Source: a virus. Taken from it: a stretch of DNA of 64,000 bases. Below the pieces are notes generated by a model, which was not told where the DNA came from, made no database searches, and saw only the letters and a list, made by a program, of their open reading frames with translations. Both the position numbers and the translations under genes were made by a program. Positions 3,001 to 58,795 of the stretch are shown one piece after another. The DNA lies in IMG/VR virus record IMGVR_UViG_3300027545_000001, positions 501 to 64,500 of that record. One strand, 5' to 3'. Position 1 is the first letter of the stretch; every line of letters begins with the position of its first letter.

Positions 3001-5626
3001 CAATGCCTTCATCCCTATTGCCGTTAACCTGACGGCTCCAACTGGCCTCAGCGTCACTAACGCAATCATCACCTTTGGCTATTTAGACTACAACGGAAAC
3101 TGCACCACAAGGAACGACCCATGTATAGCGAATGCAGCGACGATCCCGAGCGGGACAGCACCTTTCTTATATGCAAGCGAGTCGCCAACTGGTTTGGCTT
3201 GCACTACATCGTGCACGATCACGATACCAGCGATCAGCGAAAGGATGCTGTACTACACAGCGAGCTTCCGCAACGCATCGAACGTGGTGGTGGCGACGAA
3301 CCCGACAATCATTGAAGCAGTTGAACCAATGGCTCCGATTACGCTCTCGCCATCGACGCTGCCGAATGGCACCGTGGGGATTGCATACTCGCAGGCCATC
3401 ACACCCAGTGGCGGGACTGGCCCATATACCTGTGATGTAACAGTTGGATCTATACCAGCAGGCACAACACAGACTGGCACAGGTAACTGCACCATCTCTG
3501 GAATCCCCACCACTGCTACCAGTTATGGATTCACCATGACGGCTACTGACTCACTTGGTAATAGTGGTGGACTCAGTTACTCTGTAACTATTGCTCCACC
3601 CACGATTATCATTGCCCCTAATGTCATGCCTACAGGCATTCAAGGGACACTATATGCACAGAGTCTAGGTGCTAGCGGCGGAATCTTCCCATACACTTAC
3701 TCACTCACAGTTGGATCTTTACCACCAGGACTGTTCATTAACTTTCCAACCATAGGGGTTATTAGTGGGACGCCAACATCCACCGGGACAACTAACTTTA
3801 CAGTCACAGCCGTAGACTCTCACGGGAACACTGGCACCCAGGCATATTCGATTACTATTACTGCTCCTGCCGTTGCTCTCGGGACAGTTGTAATAGGATC
3901 TACTGCTACAGCGGGTATAACACAGAGTGGAGTAAATCAACCATCCACATGGACTCCACTACATCTCACACAGACTAATAACCTAGCACCCACATTCTCT
4001 CTGTTCCCCAGCATGACTGGAGTATGCAATGTAGCTAAGGCGACATCTCTTAACTGCGGAACTCTGGGGTGCTCAACTACTAGCACTCCAGGTTGTGTCC
4101 CAGCACAAGGCTATCAAGGTGGAGTATACGTCCCTGCTAACTCAACTTATCCCAATGGGGAGGCAATATTCAACCCCTGGCAGCAAGCACAATCTACTCC
4201 TATTGGACAGTGGATCGGCTATACAGGTGGGCCATCTGGCACATTCCACTGCTCTACATCTGCTGCATGTTCAGCTAACTGGGAAATCTTTGATTCCACA
4301 TCCCTAGTAGGCTCAGTTGTCACATGCACTGCTGCCCCATGCCCAACTACTGCAACTGCCGCTGGGTATGTAGGCAATGTGGTATTCCAGCCAGCATCAG
4401 CAGGCGGGCCGTGGTACTACTTCGCCCCAGACATCGCAGACATTGCTAGCCGCTCTGGCCTAGCTGTACTCAGATACAACGGGCAGGGTCTAACAAATCC
4501 GTCTAATTGGCAGGGCTTTCTTCTACCTTGTCAGTCAGCCACTCCCACAGGATGCACTGGATTCACAACCATAAATGCTAACGTCGGAGGAGCCACTACT
4601 AGCCCATCAAGCTCCGGGTATGGCTGGTGTGGTCTAGTTTATGACGGTCGATATGTATACTATGTACCAACACATGGCGGACCCTCCACTAATCGGAATG
4701 TAATCCGGTTTGATACTGGCACTTCTGGGACTAATACCTTTGTTATCACTAACTTCAGTCACGTCAATATCGGTGCATTCAACTCCAGCGCAGGAGGCTA
4801 TCTATCTGGTGGATATGATGGTGGCCAGTATGTTTACTTCTTGCCTACTGACACTGTGATGGCACGTTACAATTCCAATGCTGCCTCATGTGCTGGAGGG
4901 TTCACGAGTTCTAGTTGCTGGTCTTTCTTCAGCTTGGCTAACTTAGGCACAGGCGGTAATCCTCAAGTAACTGGCAATGGGAATCTCGCATCCATTCAGA
5001 ATAACGGGTACTATGTTGGCGCTCAAATGGTATGGGATGCGGCAGATGCTAATGAATACATGTATATGGACCCATTTCAGCTTCGTTCTACTCTAGATAT
5101 GCAGAGCAACGTTATTCGGATCAAAGTAGGCACTTGCTCAGGCGGGACTCCTGGACAACAGACCTGTACCGGAACCTTTACCCCAATTGATGTATTCTCC
5201 TCTGGCTCTACATGGGAGATCTTTGACCTAGCAAACTTAGCCTCTAACCAAGAGTGGGCGATTGCCGGGTTAGCTTCACCCCCCGTATACGGACGTGGCA
5301 GCACTTGGGGTAATAATGCACAAGGTAATCAGTTAGTTATTGGTGGATTCCAGTTAGGCTGGATTAATACATCCAATATAGCAGATCCCAAGATAGGAAT
5401 GGTTGCAGATAACGGAGCCATCTACTCTATTCACGATGTGGCACATACGCTGAGTGATCCAACTGGGTGGACTCTCACACCACGGCCATCTAGTCAAACC
5501 AGTGGCACGACTAATCAGGTTAACGGCTGTATGGGTGGCGCATATGACTATGTAGACCAGACACTTTATGTTGCGTGCCCAGCAGTGTCACCTATAGAGA
5601 GCATGTTCAGACTATCACCTATGTAA
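32..5626 (+). CDS. Very large Thr/Ser/Gly/Cys-rich fibre or surface protein with two He_PIG-like Ig domains (5'-truncated)
   Basis: 1864-aa ORF; the frame is open back to base 2 (QSCINNPQCA-M), so the true start is upstream. Two Ig-like repeats at about 3340-3870 (LPNGTVGIAYSQAITPSGGTGPY; MPTGIQGTLYAQSLGASGGIFPY); C-terminal YDGRYVYYVP-type repeats. Confidence 0.7.
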   Translation: MAILQQQINMNGWCSSAITSLCTLDVALSMNMGGNTATKILSNAVTLPCCTSGSAAVVTTPATISAGTTGIDPWIYDSSPKITSYDAYKQGGCATVSGNIVTRVGTCTGYNNGSGVSNISDFFSFDWLQSGRIRLSTVSVADACLSTSSGTNAEAVITGTTGQNSLTLATSPGNTYTFFCGQGYSIMIRRHTADAGSSVNIQGVTASYVSGLDAETPSQGLETTCSHTIFSGGYLCMTDDAGASGWLTWYNPSNGTASIIGQMQTNAKTSGSDQWASQVCPYLPDIYMVVDDTASIPTWYCVVQDTNSKWVVLETDFGGTYTTNNNFSASASIGSGAATVGTYTLTYPANSVTISDLTPGSLGMDILSLANAYLGTTAVVPAAQPLIACVGAQVQQGNLLVRCYAGVGAQDGQNTMQWLFVISPGDHNPAHAGTTGAHIIAALNTWQYANSRFSGVHGTEDYGQASPYLGYGVEPIEPGDQVIGDTAMYVTTNSEVPGNSASAAPQVIACPTNSLGVTAPDTCVQLQINPATGFSDCTTGGCEPYYWTSKGLQGTAPGVPAVSQVGDFVCISTNQTGCGFRNATAQVLQLIQKGVGGDPSQWIFRLQYPNNGNNPLLNTTLKYIFFLPSNYASTHAGPEWPGLSFVGGLYSTFTNSTLGCYTLWPYATDPLGQNTIIDPQAGCVGHGYTRTWSVVQDNNGPAAGSPQTYWARYGSTFAAVLAAPNALVTETPVFDGLTNGPSAMSGWYQSHPGPSGENAISSEQQAFFDVRPLVGAATSAPAIVYSNVGGNVWVETFSGGDIIDADDFGNVGLGTNLNRKIYATNASSGPHPLVDISGPSSNICNPTCATTTAPIYTYCIPRVIGECNSGSALGSIYVNVPGIVIKFCFGDVTSGLSQDPQANDVCITNAVPVMQGVVQASTQQNDPNAAYQRVLTHMVGPPKQTQGQVGPHLMPDNSWVFFPAPYLDGNSRSNYIAKLPPYPSVDSFVRNAFIPIAVNLTAPTGLSVTNAIITFGYLDYNGNCTTRNDPCIANAATIPSGTAPFLYASESPTGLACTTSCTITIPAISERMLYYTASFRNASNVVVATNPTIIEAVEPMAPITLSPSTLPNGTVGIAYSQAITPSGGTGPYTCDVTVGSIPAGTTQTGTGNCTISGIPTTATSYGFTMTATDSLGNSGGLSYSVTIAPPTIIIAPNVMPTGIQGTLYAQSLGASGGIFPYTYSLTVGSLPPGLFINFPTIGVISGTPTSTGTTNFTVTAVDSHGNTGTQAYSITITAPAVALGTVVIGSTATAGITQSGVNQPSTWTPLHLTQTNNLAPTFSLFPSMTGVCNVAKATSLNCGTLGCSTTSTPGCVPAQGYQGGVYVPANSTYPNGEAIFNPWQQAQSTPIGQWIGYTGGPSGTFHCSTSAACSANWEIFDSTSLVGSVVTCTAAPCPTTATAAGYVGNVVFQPASAGGPWYYFAPDIADIASRSGLAVLRYNGQGLTNPSNWQGFLLPCQSATPTGCTGFTTINANVGGATTSPSSSGYGWCGLVYDGRYVYYVPTHGGPSTNRNVIRFDTGTSGTNTFVITNFSHVNIGAFNSSAGGYLSGGYDGGQYVYFLPTDTVMARYNSNAASCAGGFTSSSCWSFFSLANLGTGGNPQVTGNGNLASIQNNGYYVGAQMVWDAADANEYMYMDPFQLRSTLDMQSNVIRIKVGTCSGGTPGQQTCTGTFTPIDVFSSGSTWEIFDLANLASNQEWAIAGLASPPVYGRGSTWGNNAQGNQLVIGGFQLGWINTSNIADPKIGMVADNGAIYSIHDVAHTLSDPTGWTLTPRPSSQTSGTTNQVNGCMGGAYDYVDQTLYVACPAVSPIESMFRLSPM

Positions 5627-5645
5627 AGTGTAATGATTACACTTT
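5625..5645. repeat. Dispersed palindrome copy 1 (AAAGTGTAAT-G-ATTACACTTT)
   Basis: Perfect 10-bp arms; overlaps the stop of the 1864-aa gene. Confidence 0.95.
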
Positions 5646-5680
5646 TATGTGCATAATGGAGTAGGGGAGGGATCACTCTA

Positions 5681-5860
5681 ATGACTGCAATAACAATCTT
5701 CGAGCTTATAGGAGCCATCTTAGCCGGATTAGCTCAAGATCTTCCGAGTCTATTGTCTATTCTCCAGGATCTTGCTACGGCTGTTAATGCTACTCCTGGA
5801 ACTCCTGAACATACTGCCGCTGTTCAGAGAATTAAGGCCGCGACAGCTAAGGCCAAATAA
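5681..5860 (+). CDS. 59-aa protein with hydrophobic N-terminus (MTAITIFELIGAILAGLAQ...)
   Basis: Hand-translated; GGGGAGG RBS at about 5664-5670; below the ORF-track size cutoff. Confidence 0.6.
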   Translation: MTAITIFELIGAILAGLAQDLPSLLSILQDLATAVNATPGTPEHTAAVQRIKAATAKAK

Positions 5861-5874
5861 TAACCCAGAACATT

Positions 5875-5904: not shown

Positions 5905-6594
5905 TTAGCCCACCTCAGATGTCACATCTAGAGTCATCATATCCAATTCACCTACAGCAGACGAGTGGCTAGCCCCTCCAAAGTTCTGTACTAGTACCAT
6001 TCCGCCACCCTTCTTAGTAAGTCCGCTCATCTCCAGCACTCTATCTCTGGCATGTGCATCTCCAGGCTTACGGATCTTACCACTGGTGCATACCGGGCAG
6101 TCTCGAATCCATAAGACTTCTTCGCCACTCTCCATTGATCTATAACCGGGGGTCTTATCTGGCAATCCAGCAGGGGCAGATACCCAAGTCATCCCATCAC
6201 ATCTGTCACATACAACATTTACAGTGCGGGCATCTTCCACCATATCTCTTGTGATATCAACACTTGCAGTCTGAGCCACAGCTAATGCAGCTTGCGTGCT
6301 CTCCTTCTGCCACCACTTATTAAACTCCATAAGATCTATATTGCAAGCCTTAGCTATTGACTGCATAGACACCTTCTTGTATCTAGGCATCATGACTCGC
6401 TCTAAGAACTCTTGGAATCTTGGGTCAGGTGAGCAGGCGAGAGCCTGTCTTACATTAGGATTCTCTCGGGGATTCAACTTAGTCAGGTAAGCCCCATACT
6501 CCTTATCCTTTATGCCGAAACTGGTACTTGGCACCAGCCCTCTTATCTCGTCTCTCTCCTTTATTAATGCTGCTACTCTCTTATTCATACCCAT
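5905..6594 (-). CDS. Hypothetical protein with CxxC...CxxC zinc finger; possible terminase small subunit
   Basis: ORF 5905..6633; likely start ATG 6594 or 6588; CDRC and CPVC pairs; helical region and C-terminal RDRVLEMSG...GGG loosely resemble TerS. Confidence 0.45.
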   Translation of the reverse strand: MGMNKRVAALIKERDEIRGLVPSTSFGIKDKEYGAYLTKLNPRENPNVRQALACSPDPRFQEFLERVMMPRYKKVSMQSIAKACNIDLMEFNKWWQKESTQAALAVAQTASVDITRDMVEDARTVNVVCDRCDGMTWVSAPAGLPDKTPGYRSMESGEEVLWIRDCPVCTSGKIRKPGDAHARDRVLEMSGLTKKGGGMVLVQNFGGASHSSAVGELDMMTLDVTSEVG

Positions 6595-6605
6595 AGTATA
6601 CTTGA

Positions 6606-6624
6606 AAGTGTAATGATTACACTT
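6606..6624. repeat. Dispersed palindrome copy 2
   Basis: AAGTGTAAT-G-ATTACACTT between divergent genes. Confidence 0.95.
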
Positions 6625-6633
6625 AATAGGCAT

Positions 6634-8415
6634 ATGAAGATAACACTGGCCTTATTAGTCTTTTGCACTTCTCTGTTATCTCAAAATCAGCCCCAACCTT
6701 CCCCACTTGTTTCTAAGAGCGCACTCACAGTCGGAACACTACCATCCCCAGCAGCAGCGGGGTGGGTAGTTAGAATTAAAGATGGCGTATCACTTAGTGA
6801 CTGCTCAACTGGAGGGGGGGGCAACTCTGTATGGTGCTGGTACAACGGGAGTGTATGGCAACCTATGGGGGCTGGTGGATTCTCCCCACCAGTTGGGCAG
6901 CAGACTCAGTACCTTCAGATCCAACCTAATACAGGAAATAACACCACTACCAGATTCACATCATTACCCTATCTAAGTTCATCTGATTACAACTTCCCAG
7001 CACAGACAGGTACGATCTCTTCCATATCTCCAGGCAATAATAACATTACTATGACTCCTGTTCCGCTGGGGGTTAATGGGTCAGATGGTCATCATAAGTT
7101 ATGGGTGTCGGGAGGAACTGGAACAGCAGAGGCTTGTACTATAGTCGGCGGGTCCGGCACATCAGGCCAAACATCAGGAGTCATTACACTTAGCTGCTCT
7201 AACTCACATAGCGGAGCGTTCACAGTAAGTAGCGGGACAGTTGGGATTGAAGAAGCTATTATTCAGGCTTCTAATATGAGCACGCCATATGTAGTCATTC
7301 CAGCAGGTGACTATACTCTGCACACAGGTGTATATATTCAGGCTGGGATGTCTGATGGAAGGCTCACTGGAATTGGTGTCTCTCTCGCAGTAGCATCTGG
7401 GTTCACAGGAGAGATAGTCACTGGTGATGCTAGCTTATTTGGATTCACTCTTGAAGGATTCGAGGTTAACTGTACGAACTGTACTGGGACAGGTAACATT
7501 ATAAATCTTAGCCGACCAGAGAACTCAGTACAGGATAAGGTCTCTAAGATACGTGTAGACTTCGCACCAGTAGGTAGCATTATCTTGAACATGGATGGCG
7601 ACGAAGACAGCACCGTAGAAGACACTGGACTATTCAATGCTGCTGGCTCACTCACTAGCTCATCCGCATCTATCTCGTGGCATGTTCCCGCAGGCAACAT
7701 ACATGTAACTAATGTCACCACCTTTGGCTATCTTCTATTTAGTTATCAGATAGCAACCATCGTGCAGACTACAAGCGGGCCACTTCTGTTAGATGGAGCC
7801 AACCTAACTACAGTGATTGATGGAGGTTACATGTATGGTGGCCTCCAACCTAATAACTCCAGTTACTTCTTCTATAACATTTCTATAACTGGCACAATCA
7901 TGGTGCTAGCCCAGAATCAGGTAGCTTTCGTTGGCACTTATGATGGGACAGTAACTTTCCAAGGACTTGCTTATGCCCAAGCTACTCCAGCTACACTTTT
8001 CGGCAGTACTACATTAGGGTCTGGGGCATTCTTTCTTTATGGCGGCCCACAACTCTATGCGAATGGAGCTACACAAGGAACTCCGAATGGCCCACAGATT
8101 GGAGGGTTCCAGCCAGGAGGCATTACTAGCATAGGCTATAACTTCATATCTACTGAGACCGGCGCTAATAATGCAGTTGTAGGTAGTACTCTACTTGTAA
8201 CTGCTCCTCTTCCTGGTATGTGCGTGACAATGATGTTGTCTCACAGCCTACAGACTGGGGGAGTTAATACAGCAGCAATTAATGGGTCATCTGCAATAGA
8301 GATCCGATCACACTACAATCCTGCTAACCTATTGTCTACTCATGCCTATATCTCTGGAGGCATCATCAATATGTGTCTCTATAGCGGCGGCTATTGGTTA
8401 GACATGAGTCAATAA
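6634..8415 (+). CDS. Tailspike/fibre-like beta-helix protein with signal-peptide-like leader
   Basis: MKITLALLVFCTSLLS-Q leader; IEEAI...YVVIPAGDYTL beta-helix cap motif; ORF-track start 6613 lies inside the palindrome. Confidence 0.65.
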   Translation: MKITLALLVFCTSLLSQNQPQPSPLVSKSALTVGTLPSPAAAGWVVRIKDGVSLSDCSTGGGGNSVWCWYNGSVWQPMGAGGFSPPVGQQTQYLQIQPNTGNNTTTRFTSLPYLSSSDYNFPAQTGTISSISPGNNNITMTPVPLGVNGSDGHHKLWVSGGTGTAEACTIVGGSGTSGQTSGVITLSCSNSHSGAFTVSSGTVGIEEAIIQASNMSTPYVVIPAGDYTLHTGVYIQAGMSDGRLTGIGVSLAVASGFTGEIVTGDASLFGFTLEGFEVNCTNCTGTGNIINLSRPENSVQDKVSKIRVDFAPVGSIILNMDGDEDSTVEDTGLFNAAGSLTSSSASISWHVPAGNIHVTNVTTFGYLLFSYQIATIVQTTSGPLLLDGANLTTVIDGGYMYGGLQPNNSSYFFYNISITGTIMVLAQNQVAFVGTYDGTVTFQGLAYAQATPATLFGSTTLGSGAFFLYGGPQLYANGATQGTPNGPQIGGFQPGGITSIGYNFISTETGANNAVVGSTLLVTAPLPGMCVTMMLSHSLQTGGVNTAAINGSSAIEIRSHYNPANLLSTHAYISGGIINMCLYSGGYWLDMSQ

Positions 8416-8416
8416 A

Positions 8417-8433
8417 AGTGTAATGATTACACT
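8417..8433. repeat. Dispersed palindrome copy 3
   Basis: AGTGTAAT-G-ATTACACT between stop 8415 and RBS GAGGA. Confidence 0.95.
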
Positions 8434-8443
8434 CAGAGGACAA

Positions 8444-10773: not shown

Positions 10774-10790
10774 AGTGTAATCATTACAGT
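10774..10790. repeat. Dispersed palindrome copy 4
   Basis: AGTGTAAT-C-ATTACAGT, followed by TTTATGGCATAAT. Confidence 0.95.
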
Positions 10791-11010: not shown

Positions 11011-11331
11011 ATGTCTGTCACAGTACAGAACGTTCAAACATTTGCAACTGACATGCTTAACACCTTGACTGCTGAGGGAGTCTTTGATCCTAATGCCAAA
11101 GTGGATGACATGTTTCTATTCTGCTTTTGGCTGAGACTGCCAGTGTCCGCTCCAGGGGTTGTGGACCAAGCTAAGGCGGCTGCATTCGCTCAGACAGTAA
11201 GGTCTAAAATGGGACCTAACTACTTAGTAGGTATTGGTGGATTCTTTATGTCGGTTGCCTACTATCCCATACCATTAACTTCACCAGATGATGGGCCGGT
11301 TCCTGCACCGGCCCACCCTCTCCTACCTTAG
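11011..11331 (+). CDS. Hypothetical protein
   Basis: 106-aa ORF with GGAG RBS. Confidence 0.6.
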   Translation: MSVTVQNVQTFATDMLNTLTAEGVFDPNAKVDDMFLFCFWLRLPVSAPGVVDQAKAAAFAQTVRSKMGPNYLVGIGGFFMSVAYYPIPLTSPDDGPVPAPAHPLLP

Positions 11332-11529
11332 AGAATCAGCGAGCTTATCCAGCCAAGACTTATGGGTGGTCAGCACACATTTATATACATGCTCATGACC
11401 ACCCACATCACAGACCTGATAACCGTTCTCACACTTGCCACAATTCTCTTTAGGCACTACTGGGTAGTTGGCGACACCAACCACTACAAGACTGAGTAAC
11501 ATCAATCCTGCAATCATTATCTTCTTCAT
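11323..11529 (-). CDS. Small exported Cys-rich protein
   Basis: MKKIMIAGLMLLSLVVVGVA leader, then CGKC...C...C; start ATG 11529 preferred over 11565. Confidence 0.55.
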   Translation of the reverse strand: MKKIMIAGLMLLSLVVVGVANYPVVPKENCGKCENGYQVCDVGGHEHVYKCVLTTHKSWLDKLADSLR

Positions 11530-11630
11530 ACCTATATAGTGCAGATCACCCCAGAAATATCTCACAATAATAATTATTAAATCTAATTAACAAAACTTGA
11601 CTTATGCCATGTCACCATGTTACGTTCATT

Positions 11631-11957: not shown

Positions 11958-11974
11958 AGTGTAATCATTACAGT
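11958..11974. repeat. Dispersed palindrome copy 5
   Basis: AGTGTAAT-C-ATTACAGT; a degenerate copy TGTAATCAATACA follows at 11988-12000. Confidence 0.95.
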
Positions 11975-12289
11975 GATGTAAGTGCTTTGTAATCAATACA
12001 ACCTGCTATTTTATTTTTTATTGAACTGTATAGATGCGGCGCCTCACCCCAGCATCCCCCTAGGTATCCCCTCAAACAATGCAGCAGGTAATGTGAGTCA
12101 ATAGGCAACAAGCTCAAGCTCACGCCAGCTAGACGACCGAGCGCGAGATGATGAGTGAGCATGACGGACCATCCATGTCTATGCCATCACTGATGCGTCG
12201 TGCGCAGCACGCAACGTGAGAGCAAGGGCGCGCAGCGCCCATGCGATTACGTTGAGCACTATAGCACCTGGTCGTGAGATGATAGTGTT

Positions 12290-12475: not shown

Positions 12476-12490
12476 TGTAATCATTACGGT
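12474..12490. repeat. Dispersed palindrome copy 6 (variant)
   Basis: AGTGTAAT-C-ATTACGGT. Confidence 0.9.
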
Positions 12491-15469: not shown

Positions 15470-15787
15470 ATGAGTGTAATCATTACGCCAACAGACTTAG
15501 ACGAAGCAATACGCCTGGAGATGGACGGCCATGCACCAATACAGCACGGCGAACCATGTGACATATGCAAGGCATTCGCTGATGCAATGGTGTCTAGCGC
15601 CAGCACAGTTGGCATCATCGAAGAGTTTGCGGCTGAGGGTGCTCGCTGTAACAGCATCCAACTATACATCAGCCTGCTAGGTGCATTCCATCGCGGGATC
15701 ATGCTAGGTGCAAAGGCACAGGAGCTAGCAACCAACAGGAATAAAGAAGATTTAGAGGGTTGGTGGGAGTTCCAGGATAAGGGCTAA
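15470..15787 (+). CDS. Hypothetical protein; N-terminus encoded by palindrome copy 7
   Basis: GAGGAGGAG RBS; begins MSVIIT. Confidence 0.55.
   Translation: MSVIITPTDLDEAIRLEMDGHAPIQHGEPCDICKAFADAMVSSASTVGIIEEFAAEGARCNSIQLYISLLGAFHRGIMLGAKAQELATNRNKEDLEGWWEFQDKG
15473..15487. repeat. Dispersed palindrome copy 7 (variant, intragenic)
   Basis: AGTGTAAT-C-ATTACG. Confidence 0.85.
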
Positions 15788-16168: not shown

Positions 16169-16369
16169 ATGACAATAGCAACGGAACTATCGATGCAATG
16201 TAGCCTATCTTTCATAGTCATCCGCAAGATTAGAGATGACTTAATGTTCCTGCTGAACATTGATGATGCCAGCGGGAGCGAGTACGAACAGTCTGTAAAG
16301 CACATTGAGACTGTGCTTGAGGGATTCGAGGACTTCACAATACGTACTCTAGCGGCTGTAAAAGTGTAA
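16169..16369 (+). CDS. Hypothetical protein
   Basis: AGGAG RBS; stop TAA lies inside palindrome copy 8. Confidence 0.55.
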   Translation: MTIATELSMQCSLSFIVIRKIRDDLMFLLNIDDASGSEYEQSVKHIETVLEGFEDFTIRTLAAVKV

Positions 16370-16379
16370 TCATTACAGT
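16363..16379. repeat. Dispersed palindrome copy 8
   Basis: AGTGTAAT-C-ATTACAGT, one base before ATG 16381. Confidence 0.95.
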
Positions 16380-17145: not shown

Positions 17146-18432
17146 ATGGAAACACCTACGGAATTTCAGGGCTTGTACTTGGAGCCTGACCAACTAGTAA
17201 CAGACGACAATATCCGATTCGGGCTGAAAGAATCCCGCGTCCAGAGCCTCATGCAGAGTATCCTAGACCGTGGTGGCGTCATGGAGCCGCTTGAAGTAGA
17301 GGCTACCACTAATGGTACTTACAAGATCACAGATGGCGCATATCGCAGGGAAGCTGTAGCTCGCCTCAATAAAGAGCAAGGCGCTGGCCTGCTTCTACCC
17401 TGCATGGTGGTTGATATCAACTCAGGTAAAGAGCGTGTTATGAGGCAGCTAGAGCATAACGGCGAACGCGAGAACATGACTCCGATGGATACCGCATACG
17501 CCATTAAGAAGCTGATGGACATGGGTATCTCGCGCACTGAGATTCGAGGGATGTTCAAGCGGCCTGGAGGAGCTAAGGGTAATAAGATTCAGCCTGCTAG
17601 TAATAGCTTCCTCAACATGATGCTGTGCTACTTGGACCTGCCCAAGACAGCACAGAGGAAGATTCACGAGGGTGACTATGGCGTAGCTGGCGCATACACT
17701 CTCTATAAGACTTGGCTGAAAGATCCTAACCGCATCAATGCCGTGATAGCTGAGCTTGACTCAAGCAGGGCCAAGCTGTATGAGGATCAGGAGAAGGATG
17801 AGGAGCGATATCTCAACTCCATAAAGAAGGTGGAAGAGGTAGAGGCCAAGCAGGTATCACTGGCATCCGAGCTAGAGCAGGCTAAGGCGACAGCAGATGT
17901 GATGTCAGCCAAGTTCTCTGAGCTATCCAAGGTAGAGAATGACGCCTATGCTAAGACTCTTGTCACTGATAAAGCTGAGAAGGATAAGGCCCAGGCAGAA
18001 TTGAAAGAGTCTAAGTCACATAGTGCAGAGGCGCTTAAGGCATTCGAGGAGAGTAAGAAGACTGCGGATAAGCTGGCGGCAAAGCTGGAGACGGCCAAGA
18101 AAGAGGCTGAGAAGATTCGTAATAAGCTGGAAGCCAAGCGCAAGGAGACCAGCAAGAAGAAGAAGGCAGTCACCTCTAAGGATGTGGTTAAGGCTGCTAA
18201 GAAGGTCGGAGTAGAGGACGCTGGCGGCCATGTGCAGTTAAAGCTGGCTGAGATCCGGTCATTCATTAGTGAACTCGCTCTGCCGTCATCACAGCCCAAG
18301 GTACAAGCTATTGGTAAGGCACTGCTGGACTGCATCAATGGCATCACCACAGATAAAGAGTGCATGAAGGCTCTAGCTATGGTGACTGGCGAGACTCCTG
18401 TGAAGAAGGCGAAAGTGGATAAGGTAGCCTAA
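17146..18432 (+). CDS. ParB/Srx-domain protein with HTH-like region and Lys/Glu coiled coil
   Basis: LVTDDNIRF...LMQSILDRGGVMEPLEV...YKITDGAYRREAV (GxxR-type motif); ENMTPMDTAYAI; long K/E/A-rich C-terminal half. Confidence 0.7.
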   Translation: METPTEFQGLYLEPDQLVTDDNIRFGLKESRVQSLMQSILDRGGVMEPLEVEATTNGTYKITDGAYRREAVARLNKEQGAGLLLPCMVVDINSGKERVMRQLEHNGERENMTPMDTAYAIKKLMDMGISRTEIRGMFKRPGGAKGNKIQPASNSFLNMMLCYLDLPKTAQRKIHEGDYGVAGAYTLYKTWLKDPNRINAVIAELDSSRAKLYEDQEKDEERYLNSIKKVEEVEAKQVSLASELEQAKATADVMSAKFSELSKVENDAYAKTLVTDKAEKDKAQAELKESKSHSAEALKAFEESKKTADKLAAKLETAKKEAEKIRNKLEAKRKETSKKKKAVTSKDVVKAAKKVGVEDAGGHVQLKLAEIRSFISELALPSSQPKVQAIGKALLDCINGITTDKECMKALAMVTGETPVKKAKVDKVA

Positions 18433-18668: not shown

Positions 18669-18692
18669 GTAGCTCTTCTCCTGTAACACTAA

Positions 18693-18736: not shown

Positions 18737-18757
18737 AAAGTGTAATGATTACACTTT
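18737..18757. repeat. Dispersed palindrome copy 9
   Basis: Perfect AAAGTGTAAT-G-ATTACACTTT at the convergence point; supplies the stop of 18749..18976. Confidence 0.95.
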
Positions 18758-23429: not shown

Positions 23430-23578
23430 TTAGAGAATGGGCATTCTTCACCAAACTGAGCATAGTATGTCCTATTCTCCAATGGCCCATAATATAAGAC
23501 ATGAGTTAGGCAGAGCCTACACCATAGTTCATAATCTCGTATTGATTCTCCACAGCAGTCACATCGTGATGTAATCAT
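23426..23578 (-). CDS. 50-aa zinc-finger-like protein between the polymerase halves
   Basis: Hand-translated MITSRCDCCGESIRDYELWCRLC...; starts in palindrome copy 10; ATGA overlap with polA. Confidence 0.55.
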   Translation of the reverse strand: MITSRCDCCGESIRDYELWCRLCLTHVLYYGPLENRTYYAQFGEECPFSK

Positions 23579-23582
23579 TACA
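23570..23582. repeat. Dispersed palindrome copy 10
   Basis: TGTAAT-C-ATTACA core; on the minus strand its TAATG is the stop of one ORF and the start of the next. Confidence 0.9.
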
Positions 23583-23885: not shown

Positions 23886-25259
23886 TCATGCTGCTTTATC
23901 TGCCCAGAACTCCTGTGGCCGTCTTCTAACGTTGTGCTCCATCCATTTAAGTAGAGGCCACAGTCTTAATGTGGCGTCTGCATCCCTGCAAGCATAGTGA
24001 ATCACCTTGTCTATTGGGGCATAGGTGATGCACTTCCCAGGCCATGAACCTAGCTCCTTCTCCACCATCTCATGGCACTCATCCCAGTTATCCCAAGCAG
24101 TGAATAAGTCCTTATCAGAGTTCTTATTGAGATCAGTAAAGAACCGCTTTAATTTAGTACTCATACTCTGTGCCTGATATATCTTCCACTTACCATCCTT
24201 GTCTCGTATCATCTCTGCTTCAGGCTTAGGCCACTCTTCTAAGTGAGCCTGCCTGTAGTAGTCCAGCACAAGAGGCTTAGCGTAGGGAGTTACTAAGTCA
24301 TCAAAGTCCTGCATAGTCATCCCTAACTCCCTATAAGCTAGAGCTTTGAGACCCTGTGGCATGTTACCCAGTGAGAACACCTTGACCATAGTGTCTCTGA
24401 TGCGACTATTAGGAAATACTAGCCCCATCTTCTTGACTACTTTGCCGTCAAAAAGCCAATTGTGAAAAAGTATAAGCCCCTTCCATTCACTAAGATACGC
24501 TTGGAAAGTCTCCAGTATATCGATCCTAGATGCCCTGACCAGATATCCCGTCCCTTCCCGGATTGAAAAGGTGAGGCAGAATGGATCTCCTCCACGTTTA
24601 ACCTCCGTATCACATGCCATTAAAGTGTAATCATTACAGCCGCCCAGTATCGAGTGCAGGTGGGCTACACTTACAACCTCTTCATACTCTTCTCTGCCCT
24701 GGTACTTATCCTTGGGCAGCACTAACTTACCTATGATGTACTTACGCAACCTAGTCCAGTCAGTGCGGATGAGTAACATCTTCTTAGGTTCATGGATGCC
24801 ACCCGCCGGGTGGTACATAGGGAATGCCTTGCCCCACATAGTAGTAACTGGCATTCCATGCTGTAACTCAAGGTCTATATCTGGATCAATCGCTCTGCAA
24901 GCGAAAGCCCCCATCGGAATGATGAGGTTAGGCTTGTGTCTTTCAAGATTGGGGTAGAGATGGTGCTCGGCACATGCCTGCAATAAATCACAGTCTGCCT
25001 GCCGCTTAGTATCAAGTTTCCCTTTAGGTCTGTCTGGTAGGCAAGAGATAGCATTGTCAAAGTATACTGAGTCTCTTTTGAATCCTGCGATTGGTAAGTA
25101 TCCACGGTTCACCTCATCTCCTGTCTTGCCCATGAATGGCAGTCCCCGTCTGTCCTCTGTAGATCCTGGGGCTTCACCTATGAAGTGATAGCCGCAGTCA
25201 GCAGGGCCATCTGGTGGCACACAGTTATTCTTGCCTGGACAGAGGGGGCAGCGGCTCAC
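23886..25259 (-). CDS. Uracil-DNA glycosylase (family 4-like) fused to 3'-5' exonuclease (N-terminal part of the DNA polymerase)
   Basis: CPLC, FIGEAPG and MYHPA UDG motifs; Exo I CDTE, Exo II FHNWLFD, Exo III YACRDA. Confidence 0.88.
   Translation of the reverse strand: MSRCPLCPGKNNCVPPDGPADCGYHFIGEAPGSTEDRRGLPFMGKTGDEVNRGYLPIAGFKRDSVYFDNAISCLPDRPKGKLDTKRQADCDLLQACAEHHLYPNLERHKPNLIIPMGAFACRAIDPDIDLELQHGMPVTTMWGKAFPMYHPAGGIHEPKKMLLIRTDWTRLRKYIIGKLVLPKDKYQGREEYEEVVSVAHLHSILGGCNDYTLMACDTEVKRGGDPFCLTFSIREGTGYLVRASRIDILETFQAYLSEWKGLILFHNWLFDGKVVKKMGLVFPNSRIRDTMVKVFSLGNMPQGLKALAYRELGMTMQDFDDLVTPYAKPLVLDYYRQAHLEEWPKPEAEMIRDKDGKWKIYQAQSMSTKLKRFFTDLNKNSDKDLFTAWDNWDECHEMVEKELGSWPGKCITYAPIDKVIHYACRDADATLRLWPLLKWMEHNVRRRPQEFWADKAA
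24626..24638. repeat. Dispersed palindrome copy 11 (intragenic)
   Basis: AAAGTGTAAT-C-ATTACAG; encodes CNDY in the UDG-exonuclease gene just before Exo I. Confidence 0.9.
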
Positions 25260-29204: not shown

Positions 29205-29432
29205 TTAGTTGATCTTGCTTCTTAAACCATCTCTGATCCAAGCTCGTGCTGATGCTGTAACTTCTTGAGCACAGTCACCTGTACCACCGTTACCTAGTGA
29301 CTGCCAGTACCACTGATCTTGTTTGACCCCATTGACCCTCTCTACTCTACGCCAGATATGGTAAGGACCGCTCTTACCATTGTCTGCCTTGTAGTAAATA
29401 GTAATGGCGTCACTTGGAACATCTGTAATCAT
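29205..29432 (-). CDS. Hypothetical protein
   Basis: Start ATG lies within palindrome copy 12 (MITDVP). Confidence 0.5.
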   Translation of the reverse strand: MITDVPSDAITIYYKADNGKSGPYHIWRRVERVNGVKQDQWYWQSLGNGGTGDCAQEVTASARAWIRDGLRSKIN

Positions 29433-29440
29433 TACACTTT
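29424..29440. repeat. Dispersed palindrome copy 12
   Basis: TGTAAT-C-ATTACACTTT between the helicase stop and the next start. Confidence 0.95.
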
Positions 29441-31008: not shown

Positions 31009-31038
31009 AGAGTAACCCAACGTATACCACCCTGTCAA
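31009..31038 (-). promoter_or_regulatory. Promoter for the helicase operon, predicted leaderless
   Basis: TTGACA-N18-TACTCT-N7-TTG(start). Confidence 0.55.
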
Positions 31039-31274
31039 CTATTATTATTGAGAATACTTGTGTGATGTTCAAGCGCCTCAAGGAAGCTCTCAAGTCCCAT
31101 CCCTAATGCAGCACTCACCTTCTGTGCCACATTTAATGTAGGACGGCGCTTGCCCGAGAAGATGCGGGACAGATGATTAGGGTAGAGGCCAGAGGCTACG
31201 GCAATGTCTGTGAGGTTGATGTAGTCGCCTGCAAAGTATACGCTCTGGCTGCTGGGGTGCCGGTACATATTCAT
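31035..31274 (-). CDS. XRE-family HTH regulator (repressor-like)
   Basis: LTDIAVASGLYPNHLSRIFSGKRRPTLNVAQKVSAALG. Confidence 0.88.
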   Translation of the reverse strand: MNMYRHPSSQSVYFAGDYINLTDIAVASGLYPNHLSRIFSGKRRPTLNVAQKVSAALGMGLESFLEALEHHTSILNNNS

Positions 31275-31300: not shown

Positions 31301-31317
31301 ACTGTAATGATTACACT
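31301..31317. repeat. Dispersed palindrome copy 13 (between divergent HTH genes)
   Basis: ACTGTAAT-G-ATTACACT. Confidence 0.95.
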
Positions 31318-31365: not shown

Positions 31366-31584
31366 GTGGCGAGACGGCAATTGACATGGGAGGAGCAGAG
31401 AGTGCGGCGCTGGGTGAAAGAGCACCGTGGCATCCTCACTCAAGTAGCTCTCTCTCATCAGCTATCCCCACAGTTTGTGCAGGCTGTAGCTTATGGCACC
31501 AATCATACAGCTATAGCTACGGCACCTGTGGTGGAGAGAGCACTTCGTAGTGCCGGATGGCCTGGAATTAGGAGAAGGCAATGA
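31366..31584 (+). CDS. Small HTH (Cro-like) protein
   Basis: LTQVALSHQLSPQFVQAVAYG; divergent from the XRE gene. Confidence 0.6.
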   Translation: MARRQLTWEEQRVRRWVKEHRGILTQVALSHQLSPQFVQAVAYGTNHTAIATAPVVERALRSAGWPGIRRRQ

Positions 31585-32974: not shown

Positions 32975-34177
32975 ATGGCTAAGGTCATCCCCATTAAGTG
33001 TAATCATTACATGCAAATCAAATTCAAATCAATGGGAGTCCCGATACTCTTGGTGTCTGACAACCCGGCACTACAAGGTGGACTCTCCCGCATGTGCCGT
33101 GACTTAGCCAGTCTATGCAGCACAATGCCGCAGTTCAGAGTGGGTGTATTAGGTAGAGGGTTAGGGCAGCGCAGTAAGTTCCCTTGGATAACCTATGACT
33201 TCCCCGAGTCTGGTAACTGGGGTGAGGATATCATAGAGCCTGTCTGGAATGACTTCGCAGGAGAAGATTCAGGTGTAATCATTACACTTGATGATCTATC
33301 CCGGCGGCACTGGTTCACTAATCCAGTTGGCATGTCTCCTCAGTTACAGCGGTTCCTAGGTGATGGCCGTAACTTTAAGAAGTGGGCTTACCTCCCGCTT
33401 GACTCTACTGGCCCCAAAGGATTCACACTCAGTGCTGCTGCTACTGACTGTGCTCTCAGGTATGACCGAGTGCTTGCGGCATCAGAGTGGGGATATAACT
33501 TACTGAGAGCTAGTGGTAGACATGATGCTGACTGGTTGCCTCATGGTATATGGGTGGATAAGTTTAACCCTTGGCCTCATTTATCTGACCCAAATGTATA
33601 TGTTGGATGTGTCATGGCTAACCAGTCCCGCAAGGACTTCCCTGCTGCCTTTGAGGCATTCGCTGTGCTCAAAGAAGAGTATGGTAACAGGCTCCGTATC
33701 TGGCTGCATACAGATGTGATGATACGATACTGGAATATCTATGCATTAGCTGCTGACTATGGTGTATCTGACTGCATAGAGGTAACACAGGATAAAGATG
33801 ATAAACAGCTTGCTCTACATTACTCTGCTTGTGACTGCACTATCCTCCCTTCTGCTGGGGAAGGATTCGGATTCCCTACTGCTGAGTCTCTTGCTTGTGG
33901 TACTGCCTGCATTGTTACTGACTATGCTGCTGGCCAAGAGATAGTAGAAGAGGAGTGCCGTGTTACTCCACTCGCGTACAGAATCGATACTCAACATAAT
34001 TGCAGACGTGCTGTGTTATCTGGTTATGCTTTTGCACAGAAGGCGAAAGAGCAAATAGAAAAGAAGCGTGCCGACTGGGGGTATAGGTCACAGGAGTTAG
34101 CTAACTCAGTGAGTCACCTTGACTGGACTAAGCTGGGTAACTTGTGGCGTAAGTGGCTGCTGGATGGAATCAAATGA
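32975..34177 (+). CDS. GT4-family (GT-B) glycosyltransferase
   Basis: NQSRKDFP; YSACDCTILPSAGEGFGFPTAESLACG; true start may be 33011 or 33032. Confidence 0.88.
   Translation: MAKVIPIKCNHYMQIKFKSMGVPILLVSDNPALQGGLSRMCRDLASLCSTMPQFRVGVLGRGLGQRSKFPWITYDFPESGNWGEDIIEPVWNDFAGEDSGVIITLDDLSRRHWFTNPVGMSPQLQRFLGDGRNFKKWAYLPLDSTGPKGFTLSAAATDCALRYDRVLAASEWGYNLLRASGRHDADWLPHGIWVDKFNPWPHLSDPNVYVGCVMANQSRKDFPAAFEAFAVLKEEYGNRLRIWLHTDVMIRYWNIYALAADYGVSDCIEVTQDKDDKQLALHYSACDCTILPSAGEGFGFPTAESLACGTACIVTDYAAGQEIVEEECRVTPLAYRIDTQHNCRRAVLSGYAFAQKAKEQIEKKRADWGYRSQELANSVSHLDWTKLGNLWRKWLLDGIK
32999..33011. repeat. Dispersed palindrome copy 14
   Basis: AAGTGTAAT-C-ATTACA at the start of the GT4 gene. Confidence 0.9.
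33272..33289. repeat. Dispersed palindrome copy 15 (intragenic)
   Basis: GGTGTAAT-C-ATTACACTT; encodes GVIITL in GT4. Confidence 0.95.
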
Positions 34178-40340: not shown

Positions 40341-40359
40341 AAGTGTAATCATTACACTT
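40341..40359. repeat. Dispersed palindrome copy 16
   Basis: AAGTGTAAT-C-ATTACACTT between stop 40359 and the next RBS. Confidence 0.95.
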
Positions 40360-42146: not shown

Positions 42147-45100
42147 TCATGACTTGAACACAGCCAAGTTTATATAAGACTCCTCGGTCCACTGCTTAAC
42201 TTCGACTGTGAAGTCAGCAGGAAAGAAAGCGAATGTGAATCCCTGACCATCCAATTGTAATGCGAATGCCAGATCCTTTATGTTCTGCGGGAGCATCTGA
42301 GGCAGCACCCTAAACTGTCCACCTGTGGAGGCTATAGTGAATGGCCCATATGTTCTACCATCCTGCGTCATGATAGTCATCAGTATAGGATTGTTGGATA
42401 TGATGGCAGGGTACATGCGCCTCATATGCTTCCAACCAGGGAATGAGAATAGTATGTACTGAGTCACAAAGAACTGACTCAGATAGGGCTGCATGAATCC
42501 ACTAGGCTCCCAAGCTGCTATACGAGGGCCAGCAGGACCACCAGTCCAAGAGAACTTAGATCCTATATTTAGATACAGAGCTAAGTTAGATAGAGAAGAT
42601 ATGTTCTGCTGAGTCTGCTGTACTGTACCATTACAGGCTATCTGCATCACTGGTGAGTAAGACTGAGCACTGTTATAGGTGGCAGCTACACTCAGTGTCC
42701 CAGTGCCCCCGAACATAATCATCGAGTCTACATAGAGCTTCTGTGCTCGTTCATCCTTGCCGTCATCAGAAGGCGTGAGGACTATAGAGTTAATGATTGC
42801 TCCATTGTCTGTATTACCACCAGCTAACATTATCTGATTGGTGGGACCCACAGACAGCTGTAAGATCTCCTGCTGATTAGGTAGGCTCTGAGAGTTCTCC
42901 ACTAAGTAATGGAAGTTAATAGCATCTGCATAGTTATTCAGGAACCACCGCTTATGATAGATCTGATACTCCAGAGTGTTCCAGTTGCCATCTATGTCGG
43001 GGTAGCTAAACCTCAGTGTCTCATCACAGTAAGACAGTCTCAGATATTGCAGGGCAGTCATATCAACTGGGAGTATGACGTTGTTACCATAAGTCACAGC
43101 AGTAGCAGGCTGTCCATCATGTGGGAACAGAGGATACAGTTCCTCATCAGTGATGTTCACACACTGTGAGTCAGTAGTGAGATAGATGCCATCAGTACCT
43201 AAGAAGGCTACACCAACAGGACAGGCACAGCAGGCCCATCTACTCCAGATACCAGACTGAGCATTCAACTTACGCCATTGAAACTGATTGCTGGCAGCAG
43301 CACCTATGGTTGCTAGATAAGAGTACTGTATGGTGAAGATCTCTTCTCTACTGCCACAGAAGGCTATGCCCTTCCATACAGCACCACTTACTAAGTTGTT
43401 AGAAGGTGAGGTTACCTCCAGAGTATTAGAGTCGTTAGCTGAATCAGCATCACTGTAGTTACTATAGTAGAGCAGCCCACCATTAACTGGATCACCCAAG
43501 GCGAATACCACAGGTGCGAATGGACCTTCCAATGCACCAAAGGCAAAGGGTAATGGCTGGCCTGTTATGGTCGGGCTAGAGATAAGGAAGCTAACACTTG
43601 AGAATGTCCCGGCATCCTGAGTAAGTTGTATGTGGGTCAGATCTATAGGTAACCCATAAGTGAGAAAGGTCTGGCCATTAATAAGAATAGCTGTAGCATC
43701 CTCAAGAGTAGGACCCAGTAGAGACCCAGTTAGTATCTGTATAGACGTGCCAACTACACTACAGGTACCAGACCAAGGTGCTTGCAGTAGCGGCCACGGC
43801 TGTAGAGCAGTGAGATCAGGTGGCTGGTTAGTCTCCAGTATAGATGAGTCAGGCAAGCTATCTAAGTAAGTGCCAGAGTTAGGCGTGGTAGCCACATAGA
43901 GGGGAGATGTTACAGCCCCACCTAATCTGTAAATGTCATTACTATCAACACCAGCCTGTGTACTATAAACAGGTGTAATGATTACACCTTCTCTCAACGG
44001 GAATAGAGCTTGCCTATTACCCGGCCCAGGCACTGAGTGAGCACCTGTTGAAGAGTCCCTATTAGCTGTGTAGTAGATCAAGCCAGTTGGTGAGTTAGGC
44101 TGTATCGTAGGTCCATAAGTGCCAAAGAAGTACCACCAGTCAAAGCCATAAGAGCAAGCTCCACTGCTAGTCATCTGAATAGCTATGCCAGTTATGTTGG
44201 AGAAGTTAAGAGTGTAGTCTCCACCATACTGAGTACCAGATGAGATGGGTATTACTATCTCACACCACGAGTCACCGCTGGAGCCTAACTCAACTAACTG
44301 TATCTGGGGTATAGTCCATATCCACGAGTTACCTGGACTAGTAAAGGAGAAGTTAGGGGTAGAGTCCAGACTGACTAGTATCTGCATGTTAATAACATTC
44401 TGAGGATTCTGGAGGAACAGACTAATATGCAGATAGTCATTAGCAGGATCTATGGATGCCCCATTGGATGCCACCTGAGCATCGATGCCACCACTGAAGT
44501 TAGCGGCACCTATAGCTGCTGTCGTATGGACTAGCGATACAGCCCCAGATGTTATAGTCTCTGTTGCTACATGAGTCCCAACGGTATACACATACCAAGA
44601 CAGCAGCCCAGTTACAGTGTTACCGACTGAGTGAGTACTGCCTGTAGAGCACCTAATAGAATAGGCTGACCCAGTAGGTGCGGGTATAACTTCAAGTACT
44701 CTGAACACATCAGAGCCTATCTGTAGGAGTGAGTTACGAGCTAGGCCAGATGGGTTATTTACTAAGGTCATGGAGCACAGACCATTAGTCCCGCTGTCAT
44801 AAGATATGCCTGCCACTGTGGTAGTAGCTATAGCTGGCAGGACATCTCTCACTAGTACATGCTCTGCCCCATTAAGTATCACCTTCATTCTGGAACCCAT
44901 CCAGAATGTCTGGGGCAAAGTCATAGATGGATTGATGCAGCACCACCCTGTACTGCCAGAGTTATAGAGAATAGCTCCTATGGTGGCTCCAGATGAGTTA
45001 GTCCTATCGAATGTAGCAGGTGAGGAACTACCCCCAGTAGCAGACCACCCCGAGTCAGTCTGGGCATCTGTAATAGTTACTGTAGCTGGAGGAGCGTACT

Positions 45101-47097: not shown

Positions 47098-47114
47098 AGT
47101 GTAATGATTACACT
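47098..47114. repeat. Dispersed palindrome copy 18
   Basis: AGTGTAAT-G-ATTACACT between a stop and an RBS. Confidence 0.95.
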
Positions 47115-50364: not shown

Positions 50365-50383
50365 AAGTGTAATCATTACACTT
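50365..50383. repeat. Dispersed palindrome copy 19
   Basis: AAGTGTAAT-C-ATTACACTT overlapping the MCP stop, followed by an AGGAG RBS. Confidence 0.95.
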
Positions 50384-52461: not shown

Positions 52462-52478
52462 ACTGTAATGATTACACT
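52462..52478. repeat. Dispersed palindrome copy 20
   Basis: ACTGTAAT-G-ATTACACT between a stop and RBS GAGGA. Confidence 0.95.
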
Positions 52479-53194: not shown

Positions 53195-53211
53195 AGTGTA
53201 ATCATTACAGT
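53195..53211. repeat. Dispersed palindrome copy 21
   Basis: AGTGTAAT-C-ATTACAGT; TTGAC occurs at both ends on the minus strand. Confidence 0.95.
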
Positions 53212-55497: not shown

Positions 55498-55514
55498 AGT
55501 GTAATCATTACACT
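55498..55514. repeat. Dispersed palindrome copy 22
   Basis: AGTGTAAT-C-ATTACACT; supplies the stop of 55508..55927. Confidence 0.95.
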
Positions 55515-56168: not shown

Positions 56169-56187
56169 AAGTGTAATCATTACACTT
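56169..56187. repeat. Dispersed palindrome copy 23
   Basis: AAGTGTAAT-C-ATTACACTT; one arm forms a -10 element. Confidence 0.95.
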
Positions 56188-56199
56188 ACTTGATGTCAA
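56170..56199 (-). promoter_or_regulatory. Promoter whose -10 lies inside the palindrome
   Basis: TTGACA-N18-TACACT-N7-ATG. Confidence 0.55.
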
Positions 56200-58481: not shown

Positions 58482-58501
58482 GAAACGGCCTCATTACACT
58501 T

Positions 58502-58750
58502 TCAGGCTTCATCTTCATCACCTATCCCATCCCACGCATCTTTCAACTTCTGCAAAGCACTCTTAGGCTTATCGTCATCACCCATGTAACTTACTTCTGT
58601 GTCGGACTTCTTGGGATTCTCTGTTATTCTGATGATGGGTGGATTCCTGGCAGCTAACTCTGTTTCATACAATTCGCGCAGGATTGACATTTCCCTAGCG
58701 ATTGTGCTGAAGGGATGCACCAATCTCATCAGTTTAATCCACATATACAA
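58502..58750 (-). CDS. Hypothetical protein upstream of the terminase
   Basis: 82 aa; TATACT-N7-TTG start geometry. Confidence 0.55.
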   Translation of the reverse strand: MYMWIKLMRLVHPFSTIAREMSILRELYETELAARNPPIIRITENPKKSDTEVSYMGDDDKPKSALQKLKDAWDGIGDEDEA

Positions 58751-58776
58751 TGATGATAGTATACGTCATAAGGATA

Positions 58777-58795
58777 AAGTGTAATGATTACACTT
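58777..58795. repeat. Dispersed palindrome copy 24
   Basis: AAGTGTAAT-G-ATTACACTT between the divergent packaging and fibre genes. Confidence 0.95.

Follow-up and report, generated by a model that had tools for sequence, protein, structure and literature searches.

Sites scattered over a mobile genome and served by a protein of the ParB family form an arrangement that is well studied on plasmids, but not in phages. Here we analyse a 64,000-nt stretch of viral DNA (the window; bases 501–64500 of the 66,875-bp IMG/VR virus record IMGVR_UViG_3300027545_000001) in which a 13-bp palindrome, TGTAATSATTACA, recurs throughout the genome of a tailed phage that also encodes an orphan ParB/KorB/Noc-like protein. 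KorB of plasmid RK2 is a ParB-family CTP-gated clamp that loads at dispersed 13-bp palindromes (OB) and silences promoters near and far (PMC11790492, PMC13584720); the OB site has a 6-1-6 layout with the core TTTAGCGGCTAAA and a central G/C (PMC11790492). By analogy, KorB-OB would be the closest mechanistic model for the phage sites. These too are 13-bp palindromes, built as 6-1-6 around a G/C, and their 25 copies are scattered across a mobile genome, some beside promoters (one ~13 nt upstream of a −35 box at the junction of divergent XRE-type and Cro-like genes) and some far from any. Their predicted reader is, like KorB, a ParB-family protein with a nucleotide triphosphate-switch N-domain and a helix-turn-helix (HTH), and KorB structures are among its top fold matches. 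RK2 has 12 OB sites, whereas the phages carry 25–44, two to four times as many, with a sequence unrelated to OB. The carrier is a tailed phage instead of a plasmid, the sites also lie inside coding sequences and are evenly spaced, neither an IncC/ParA partner nor a recognised KorA/TrbA clamp-locking partner is present, and the phage protein has a ~140-residue coiled-coil hairpin between HTH and C-terminal domain and a G-x-Y-R-x-x-A box.

The closest phage precedent, again by analogy, would be the Cluster O mycobacteriophages (Corndog), whose 17-bp dyad TGTTCGG-N3-CCGAACA is present in 34 invariant copies without orientation; its function was left open, and the authors named no binder and drew no link from the repeats to gp90 (PMC4351075). 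Both systems consist of palindromes with a 3-bp spacer spread genome-wide (more than 30 invariant copies in Cluster O), mostly at junctions with some copies intragenic, and without orientation to transcription, in genomes that have no integrase or ParA and encode a ParB-like protein (gp90 in Corndog). An hhalign comparison of gp90 with the ParB-like family of our phages gave a probability of 96% over the N-domain and the start of the HTH, and gp90 matches Pfam ParB_N. The two systems differ in sequence and in host phylum (actinobacteria for Cluster O), and their ParB-like proteins are only distantly related.

Noc of Bacillus, an orphan ParB paralogue without ParA, binds many dispersed palindromes (NBS sites) and spreads from them; its substrate is the host chromosome, which it anchors at the membrane. 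Chromosomal parS sites are concentrated around the origin and function together with ParA. By sequence and by fold, the phage protein matches Noc best, and it is likewise partner-less, but the sites of Noc serve a host chromosome and parS sites are origin-near. No membrane-targeting helix or ParA-interaction motif was seen in the phage protein, although no search aimed at either was made. The stoperators of Cluster A mycobacteriophages are asymmetric, oriented with transcription and bound by the immunity repressor of a temperate phage (summarised in part in PMC4351075). They resemble our sites in being short, conserved, intergenic and spread across a phage genome (24–36 copies), and in co-evolving with the binding protein; our sites are instead palindromic, with a balanced central base and asymmetric variants in both orientations, and the genome has no integrase or other hint of a temperate life.

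A palindrome network shared by uncultured soil phages

Within the window, TGTAATSATTACA is found in 22 exact copies, and in none of 100 dinucleotide-preserving shuffles. A 25th copy, also exact, lies beyond it in the record, at window-equivalent position 65998. The original prediction had listed 24 identical sites far above chance expectation. The excess is borne out and all 24 centres are genuine, but the copies at 12482 and 15481 are one-base variants, TGTAATCATTACG, that end in G instead of A; with these two so changed and the rest exact, all 24 retain TGTAATSATTAC, as had been claimed. Three partial sites had been named as well. One is a single-mismatch copy centred at 11994 (the position given for it, 11988, is its first base), and those at 12584 and 58491 are half-sites. 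The mismatch profile comprises 22 exact copies and three with one mismatch, followed by sites with 2–3 mismatches at chance level, and thus has no degenerate tail. The extended consensus, aAAG-TGTAAT-S-ATTACA-CTTt, is symmetric and 21 bp long, with information content limited to positions −10 to +10. Proteins of the ParB family recognise palindromes, and no other recurring palindrome that could serve the ParB-like protein was found in the genome.

The motif is the shared mark of an entire group of uncultured soil phages. In IMG/VR, an exact-pattern search located the 17-mer in 36 loci, and many of these contigs encode polymerase, helicase, portal or terminase proteins 45–70% identical to those of the window. 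Five relatives represented by whole records hold 19–36 exact copies each, and site copies number 19–44 per genome in seven relatives. Two more distant genomes (G006 and G007, ParB 32–35% identical) came from a profile search with the ParB-like protein; their sites have the form YGTAAT-W-ATTACR (W-type) and number 32 and 38. Contigs found through further ParB homologues have an asymmetric site with a GCA centre (L113 and L117; CGTAAGCATTACA in L113), an A-S-T centre (L118), or looser centres, T-N-A or C-A-A (L119, L121). The part that is invariant group-wide is GTAA-N3-TTAC; the central triplet is lineage-specific and, within most genomes, largely uniform. In G006 and G007 (L107–L112) the outer, central and opposite outer bases are correlated, CGTAATAATTACA and its reverse complement dominating, and at several orthologous positions one genome has the exact reverse complement of the other's site, as though the site had been flipped as a whole.

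Conservation was measured by aligning 300-nt windows around each site to the other genomes, which gave 57 orthologous pairs. In 53 of these the 10 core bases agree throughout, with ~3 expected from flanks that are 74% identical (P~1e-63); the central base, which flips between G and C (A and T in W-type sites), is identical in 41/57 pairs, about the flank rate. For copies in long open frames, the original prediction had proposed a check of synonymous sites. Third-codon positions within the core are conserved in 71/74 cases, against 58% in flanking codons (Fisher P = 3e-13), and selection therefore acts on the DNA sequence itself. Neither neutral drift nor insertion-like mobility, which would have spoken against a functional site, was seen in the relatives: positions are orthologous and the core is kept.

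Placement was counted for 161 exact copies from six genomes, using our own rough gene calls. Co-directional gene junctions account for 87 of them and open frames of 80 codons or more for 42; the others are at convergent junctions (17), divergent junctions (12) and contig edges (3). In 27 cases the upstream gene ends on the TAA that the site contains, and in 65 a stop codon is found between −4 and +10 nt from the site; starts that come no more than 40 nt after a site are a median of 17 nt away from it, just room for a ribosome-binding site (RBS). Intragenic copies in long genes are read as V-I/M-I-T or C-N-x-Y codons. In the window, the predicted sites at the divergent junctions (6615, 31309 and 58786) and at the convergent one (18747) are in place, as are three copies inside genes, all in frame: 24632 (UDG|exonuclease linker), 33280 (GT4) and 43980 (1138-aa structural gene). 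The sites are spaced more evenly than random positions or positions sampled from gene junctions (coefficient of variation 0.47–0.74 vs ~1; P≤0.03 in 6/8 genomes). The fibre block, which runs through the record ends (58804–64000 plus 1–5626), is GC-richer (52% vs 48%) and site-poor, with one copy in 13.7 kb vs 0.45/kb elsewhere (Poisson P 0.015), consistent with recent acquisition from elsewhere.

The sites are double-stranded DNA recognition sites for a two-fold symmetric (dimeric) protein. This follows from the lack of strand bias (the central base relative to transcription is C in 40 cases and G in 47, and upstream and downstream flanks are mirror images), from the absence of covariation supporting hairpin pairing at flanking positions, from the asymmetric variants (CGTAAGCATTACA in L113, CGTAATAATTACA in G006/G007) being found in both orientations relative to genes, from weak folding, and from the rarity of −35 boxes at promoter distance (2/87 sites). 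Full 21-mers fold at about −7 (best −7.4) kcal/mol, copies with poor flanks at −3.3 to −3.6 kcal/mol, like shuffles, and some do not fold. Flank complementarity does not exceed the expectation from base frequencies, and therefore nothing selects for a longer stem; the element has no Rfam match. The mixed orientation and DNA-level dimeric site put forward in the original prediction thus stand, on the strength of the absent strand bias, the symmetric and independently chosen flanks, the selection at synonymous positions and the like behaviour of the asymmetric relatives. The results also agree with its proposal that the sites mark all modules and would act as global operators or loading sites.

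Candidate readers and rival explanations

Three proteins had been proposed as readers: the ParB-like protein, the XRE-type HTH protein and the Cro-like protein. To judge by sequence and predicted fold, the ParB-like protein has the most support, because it has a ParB/KorB/Noc fold with an HTH, is present in every relative examined and in most has a site upstream of its own promoter. It matched PHROG ParB families (E 6e-14 to 4e-10), and phmmer against PDB sequences returned Noc and Spo0J, with alignments spanning the G-x-x-R-x-x-A and N-x-E-R-E boxes. In Pfam, the protein and its counterparts in G001 and L106 stayed below threshold; PF02195 is recorded for homologues. In the AlphaFold2 (AF2) model (predicted local distance difference test score, pLDDT, 86), the N-domain leads through a small beta-hairpin into the HTH; an antiparallel coiled coil of ~140 residues comes next, and the C-terminal domain is helical. 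Foldseek ranked Noc, KorB, ParB and Spo0J highest, aligned over ~200 residues of N-domain and HTH (probability 1.00 to Noc, KorB and ParB). The HTH comes directly after the N-domain (AF2 helices 130–136, 153–164 and 167–175), and a SNSFINM...L-LP motif parallels the ParB recognition helix. The family is small, with 28 clusters, metagenomic throughout.

The sites travel with the ParB-like gene and the replication module. The gene is present in 8/8 whole relatives, wherever its region could be examined, and 7/7 further contigs found through ParB homologues carry GTAA-N3-TTAC sites; in blastp clustering, the only families common to the relatives belong to the replication module or are the ParB-like protein. 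In 13 of 16 loci, whatever the motif variant, a site lies 84–251 nt upstream of the parB start, typically 14–42 nt upstream of a TTGAC-type −35 box, and none lies within the parB genes of the loci examined; this is the layout that would be expected for autoregulation. In the putative recognition helix, Q149, S152, N153 and N157 are invariant or nearly so, like the GTAA half-site, and the remaining helix residues vary between lineages with different central triplets. Among 50,697 cultured phage records, tblastn with the ParB-like protein gave only a weak N-domain match, in Gordonia phage Bowser. Bowser was considered as a further example and set aside: it has a ParB-like gene and an integrase but no iterated palindrome, and therefore a phage ParB-like gene alone does not predict sites. 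We also observed that the parB and XRE promoters of two relatives share an exact element, TTGACAGGTTTC (G002 21042 and 32365; G005 21847 and 33920), which suggests that the two genes are under common control there by a factor other than the palindrome. With only two exact copies per genome, this element was rejected as part of the network.

We hold it somewhat probable that the sites are docking or loading sites for this phage ParB/KorB/Noc-like protein. A dimeric phage protein would read the half-site (T)GTAA across a 3-bp spacer, with A/T-rich flanks extending the site to ~21 bp. ParB-like dimers would dock at the ~25 sites and, as in KorB, ParB and Noc, might then close into clamps and slide off, so that a site every 1.3–2.5 kb would keep the whole phage chromosome loaded. 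Sites that adjoin promoters (the XRE/Cro junction here, the parB promoter in relatives) would be operators and the rest loading points. Most would sit in the tiny spacers between stop codon and RBS because a 13-bp palindrome costs nothing there, and in long genes copies would be retained within the reading frame, as V-I/M-I-T or C-N-x-Y codons. The ParB-like protein as reader, the nucleotide-gated clamp cycle and the outcome (global transcription control, genome organisation or protection) are what we infer from these data. A bolder form of the idea, which we think rather doubtful, is that a probably virulent phage coats its entire chromosome with a partner-less ParB clamp, a self-marking, chromatin-like layer whose site and protein co-evolve per lineage. 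Such a coat would serve to organise replication and packaging, or else to protect the DNA against host nucleases or SMC-type defences, independently of plasmid partition.

Several observations weigh against the ParB-like protein as reader, or against its clamp cycle. Canonical ParB nucleotide-binding boxes read GERRxRA and ENLQRE. Here the first box is the non-canonical G-x-Y-R-x-x-A, which keeps one Arg of ERR, so that CTP binding and clamp closure are uncertain; G64 and R67 are invariant in a 27-sequence alignment and A70 among six phage genomes only, and a second box, (E)N-x-E-R-E-N-x-x-P-M-D, is present. The match between helix variants and site variants tracks phylogeny, so the events are not independent, and P0023 (L114) has a clearly different helix yet a standard TSA-centred site. 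In the window genome, parB has no upstream site closer than 775 nt. The asymmetric consensus sites of some relatives are unexpected for a symmetric homodimer. The order of stop codon, site, RBS and ATG could also signal a role in gene expression and not mere tolerance. Finally, sensitive tblastn found XRE homologues in G001–G005 and G007; XRE thus co-occurs with the sites as ParB does, and co-occurrence does not separate the two.

This last point also speaks for an XRE-type (or Cro-like) regulator as reader, with the sites as operators or roadblocks, a palindromic counterpart of stoperators, and the ParB target elsewhere. HTH_3 dimers commonly read short palindromes, and the XRE promoter region holds a site in G000, G001, G003 and G007. 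There is none near that promoter in G002, G004 and G005, however, and in L113 the syntenic helicase–Cro interval has no XRE gene although the site network is present (the source-called frame there bears no relation to XRE and overlaps the true Cro-like gene). No integrase or other lysogeny sign that would call for immunity-type silencing is present in the genome, and even spacing and upkeep inside long genes would be unexpected of a promoter-directed repressor. The Cro-like protein is the weakest of the three candidates because homologues were detected in only two relatives, G001 and L113. Overall, we judge this explanation, with XRE as the chief rival to the ParB-like protein, unlikely. A host regulator, for example a Fur/Zur-family repressor that ties the phage genome to a host signal, seems quite improbable. 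Fur/Zur-family repressors bind 7-1-7 boxes (xxxTAAT-N-ATTAxxx), a likeness in architecture that speaks for it. The exact 17-mer, however, gave 43 single hits in 185,579 species genomes (596 Gb), about the chance level, and more than one locus nowhere except in one contig with two, which speaks against both a host regulon and residence as a prophage in known genomes; a degenerate regulon in the phage's own host could escape this search. Near-perfect identity over more than 160 copies would also be unusual for a host regulon, and the central triplets (TSA, TWA, GCA, AST) are lineage-specific and uniform within each genome. On the other side, the exact 17-mer AGTGTAATSATTACACT is present once in each of five Fictibacillus species, at one conserved locus (L069, L071, L075, L084, L093); this copy may be a conserved Fur/Zur-type operator, and it probably has no relation to the phage.

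That the copies act as RNA hairpins 5′ of RBSs (a processing site, mRNA stabiliser, weak terminator or translational operator for an RNA-binding protein) is suggested by the many that come after a stop codon and ahead of the following RBS, ~17 nt before the ATG, and by the folding of full 21-mers. It is strict sequence and not structure that is conserved, however, without flank covariation or an Rfam match; copies with poor flanks fold like shuffles, asymmetric variants point both ways relative to transcription, copies stand at divergent junctions, in non-coding DNA and inside genes, and the 18747 copy has a canonical GC-rich terminator next to it. We consider an RNA element very improbable. 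A bidirectional phage promoter element, or else a selfish miniature palindromic insertion, is scarcely credible. TGTAATSAT does resemble an extended −10, since TGn plus AATSAT fits 4/6 positions of the hexamer, A2 and T6 included, and at a few orthologous junctions the site is cleanly there in one genome and missing from another (e.g. G004 5611 vs G002), as an insertion would be. The scarcity of −35 boxes, the ordinary TTGACA-N17 promoters visible elsewhere in these genomes, and a genome without phage RNA polymerase or sigma factor argue against a promoter; orthologous positions conserved at 74% flank identity do not fit a mobile element, and copies at convergent junctions and within genes count against this explanation as well.

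According to a 2025 survey (PMC12704722), phages and mobile elements frequently carry orphan ParB-fold proteins, and a literature search found no published function for an orphan ParB in a phage. The group described here gives such proteins a concrete candidate DNA target, and its 19–44 copies per genome, together with the natural variants of the central triplet, could serve to map recognition rules. It may also bear on the Cluster O repeats, unexplained since 2015, as a partner-less ParB-like protein is found in those phages too. Should the protein of our phages prove to be a sliding clamp, KorB-type long-range control would extend from plasmids to tailed phages.

The source genome and its other features

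The record is graded complete by CheckV, with a 126-bp overlap between its ends, and comes from soil metagenomes. Four soil DNA runs contain the sequence partly or fully, a fifth run of the same study has next to none, and no RNA run is among them. Megablast of 20 kb against the 50,697 cultured phage records gave no nucleotide match. PHROG and Pfam scans recognised only part of the gene content (Table 1), and tRNA and Rfam scans were empty. Genome searches returned no tyrosine or serine recombinase (integrase, resolvase), ParA, phage-type RNA polymerase or sigma factor. The ParA/AAA_31 search, without a match here, was positive in 14/14 control genomes when run identically, and the locus is therefore not a ParABS partition locus. 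A conserved 150-aa protein (20894–21343) had no Pfam match, and its alignment showed no evident DNA-binding feature.

Table 1. Palindromic sites and other features of the window.
Feature	Coordinates	Strand	Context
Site 1	5629..5641	.	full 21-bp palindrome, 3 nt past stop of giant fibre gene; convergent with minus-strand gene 5905-6594
Site 2	6609..6621	.	middle of ~40-bp divergent junction; start codons ~14 nt off on each side
Site 3	8419..8431	.	between two plus-strand tailspike-like genes; order stop, site, RBS, ATG
Site 4	10776..10788	.	non-coding, past tailspike gene
Site 5	11960..11972	.	non-coding late/early boundary, adjoins hairpin cluster
Degenerate copy TGTAATCAATACA	11988..12000	.	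1 mismatch; 28 nt from site 5
Site 6	12476..12488	.	variant TGTAATCATTACG; early region
Site 7	15475..15487	.	variant TGTAATCATTACG; 5 nt past ATG at 15470, codons 2-6 of small early gene
Site 8	16365..16377	.	between early genes; ATG at 16381, 3 nt further
Site 9	18741..18753	.	full 21-bp palindrome, convergent junction; 18 nt past GC-rich terminator 18692-18723
Site 10	23570..23582	.	in 456-bp gap without open reading frame (ORF), between UDG-exonuclease and polymerase genes
Site 11	24626..24638	.	in frame in UDG-exonuclease ORF, exactly at interdomain linker; relative L113 also has a copy there
Site 12	29424..29436	.	helicase stop codon 3 nt before
Site 13	31303..31315	.	between divergent XRE and Cro-like genes; ~13 nt upstream of TTGACG −35 box facing Cro-like gene
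Site 14	32999..33011	.	past hairpin, upstream of likely true GT4 start
Site 15	33274..33286	.	within GT4, read V-I-I-T; orthologous position kept in G001
Site 16	40344..40356	.	late operon junction: stop, site, RBS, ATG at 40329
Site 17	43974..43986	.	within 1138-aa structural gene, read V-I-I-T; kept in G001
Site 18	47100..47112	.	late junction; AAGGAG RBS 2 nt on
Site 19	50368..50380	.	late junction directly past stop of major head gene, then RBS and ATG
Site 20	52464..52476	.	late junction: stop, site, RBS, ATG at 52451
Site 21	53197..53209	.	non-coding, downstream of portal gene
Site 22	55500..55512	.	late junction; stop of upstream gene is the TAA inside the site
Site 23	56172..56184	.	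late junction below terminase-like gene
Site 24	58780..58792	.	divergent junction, late operon / fibre genes
Tailspike-like genes		+	pair flanking site 3 (PHROG/Pfam)
Small early gene block			last gene is ParB-like, 17146-18432 (PHROG/Pfam)
Orphan ParB/KorB/Noc-like protein	17146..18432	+	428 aa; ParB N-domain, HTH, ~140-residue coiled-coil hairpin, C-terminal helical domain (predicted)
Replication module		-	split family A polymerase, ERCC4-like protein, helicase
Divergent XRE/Cro-like pair	31.0-31.6 kb
XRE-type HTH protein	31035..31274	-	79 aa; rival candidate reader
Cro-like small protein	31366..31584	+	weak candidate reader; homologues only in G001 and L113
Glycosyltransferase operon			PHROG/Pfam
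Head and packaging module		-	portal, major head and terminase-like genes

Some further features were observed. Perfect hairpin palindromes with arms of 7–11 nt cluster at 11631–11831, in the non-coding late/early boundary beside site 5 and its degenerate neighbour, and may mark an origin or packaging region. A perfect sigma-70 consensus (TTGACA and TATAAT separated by 18 nt, a TG preceding the latter) lies antisense within the plus-strand early block, on the minus strand at 15872–15901. The early operon ends at a strong canonical intrinsic terminator (18692–18723; 13-bp GC-rich stem and T-run), 18 nt before the 18747 palindrome. The family A DNA polymerase is split on the minus strand into a UDG-exonuclease ORF (23886–25259) and a polymerase ORF (22044–23429), separated by a 456-bp AT-richer gap without an ORF. 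Relatives have LAGLIDADG or Hint insertions within these replication genes; L117 encodes a UDG gene of 822 aa (6290–8758), and L114 a helicase with an intein-like insert (11106–11703).

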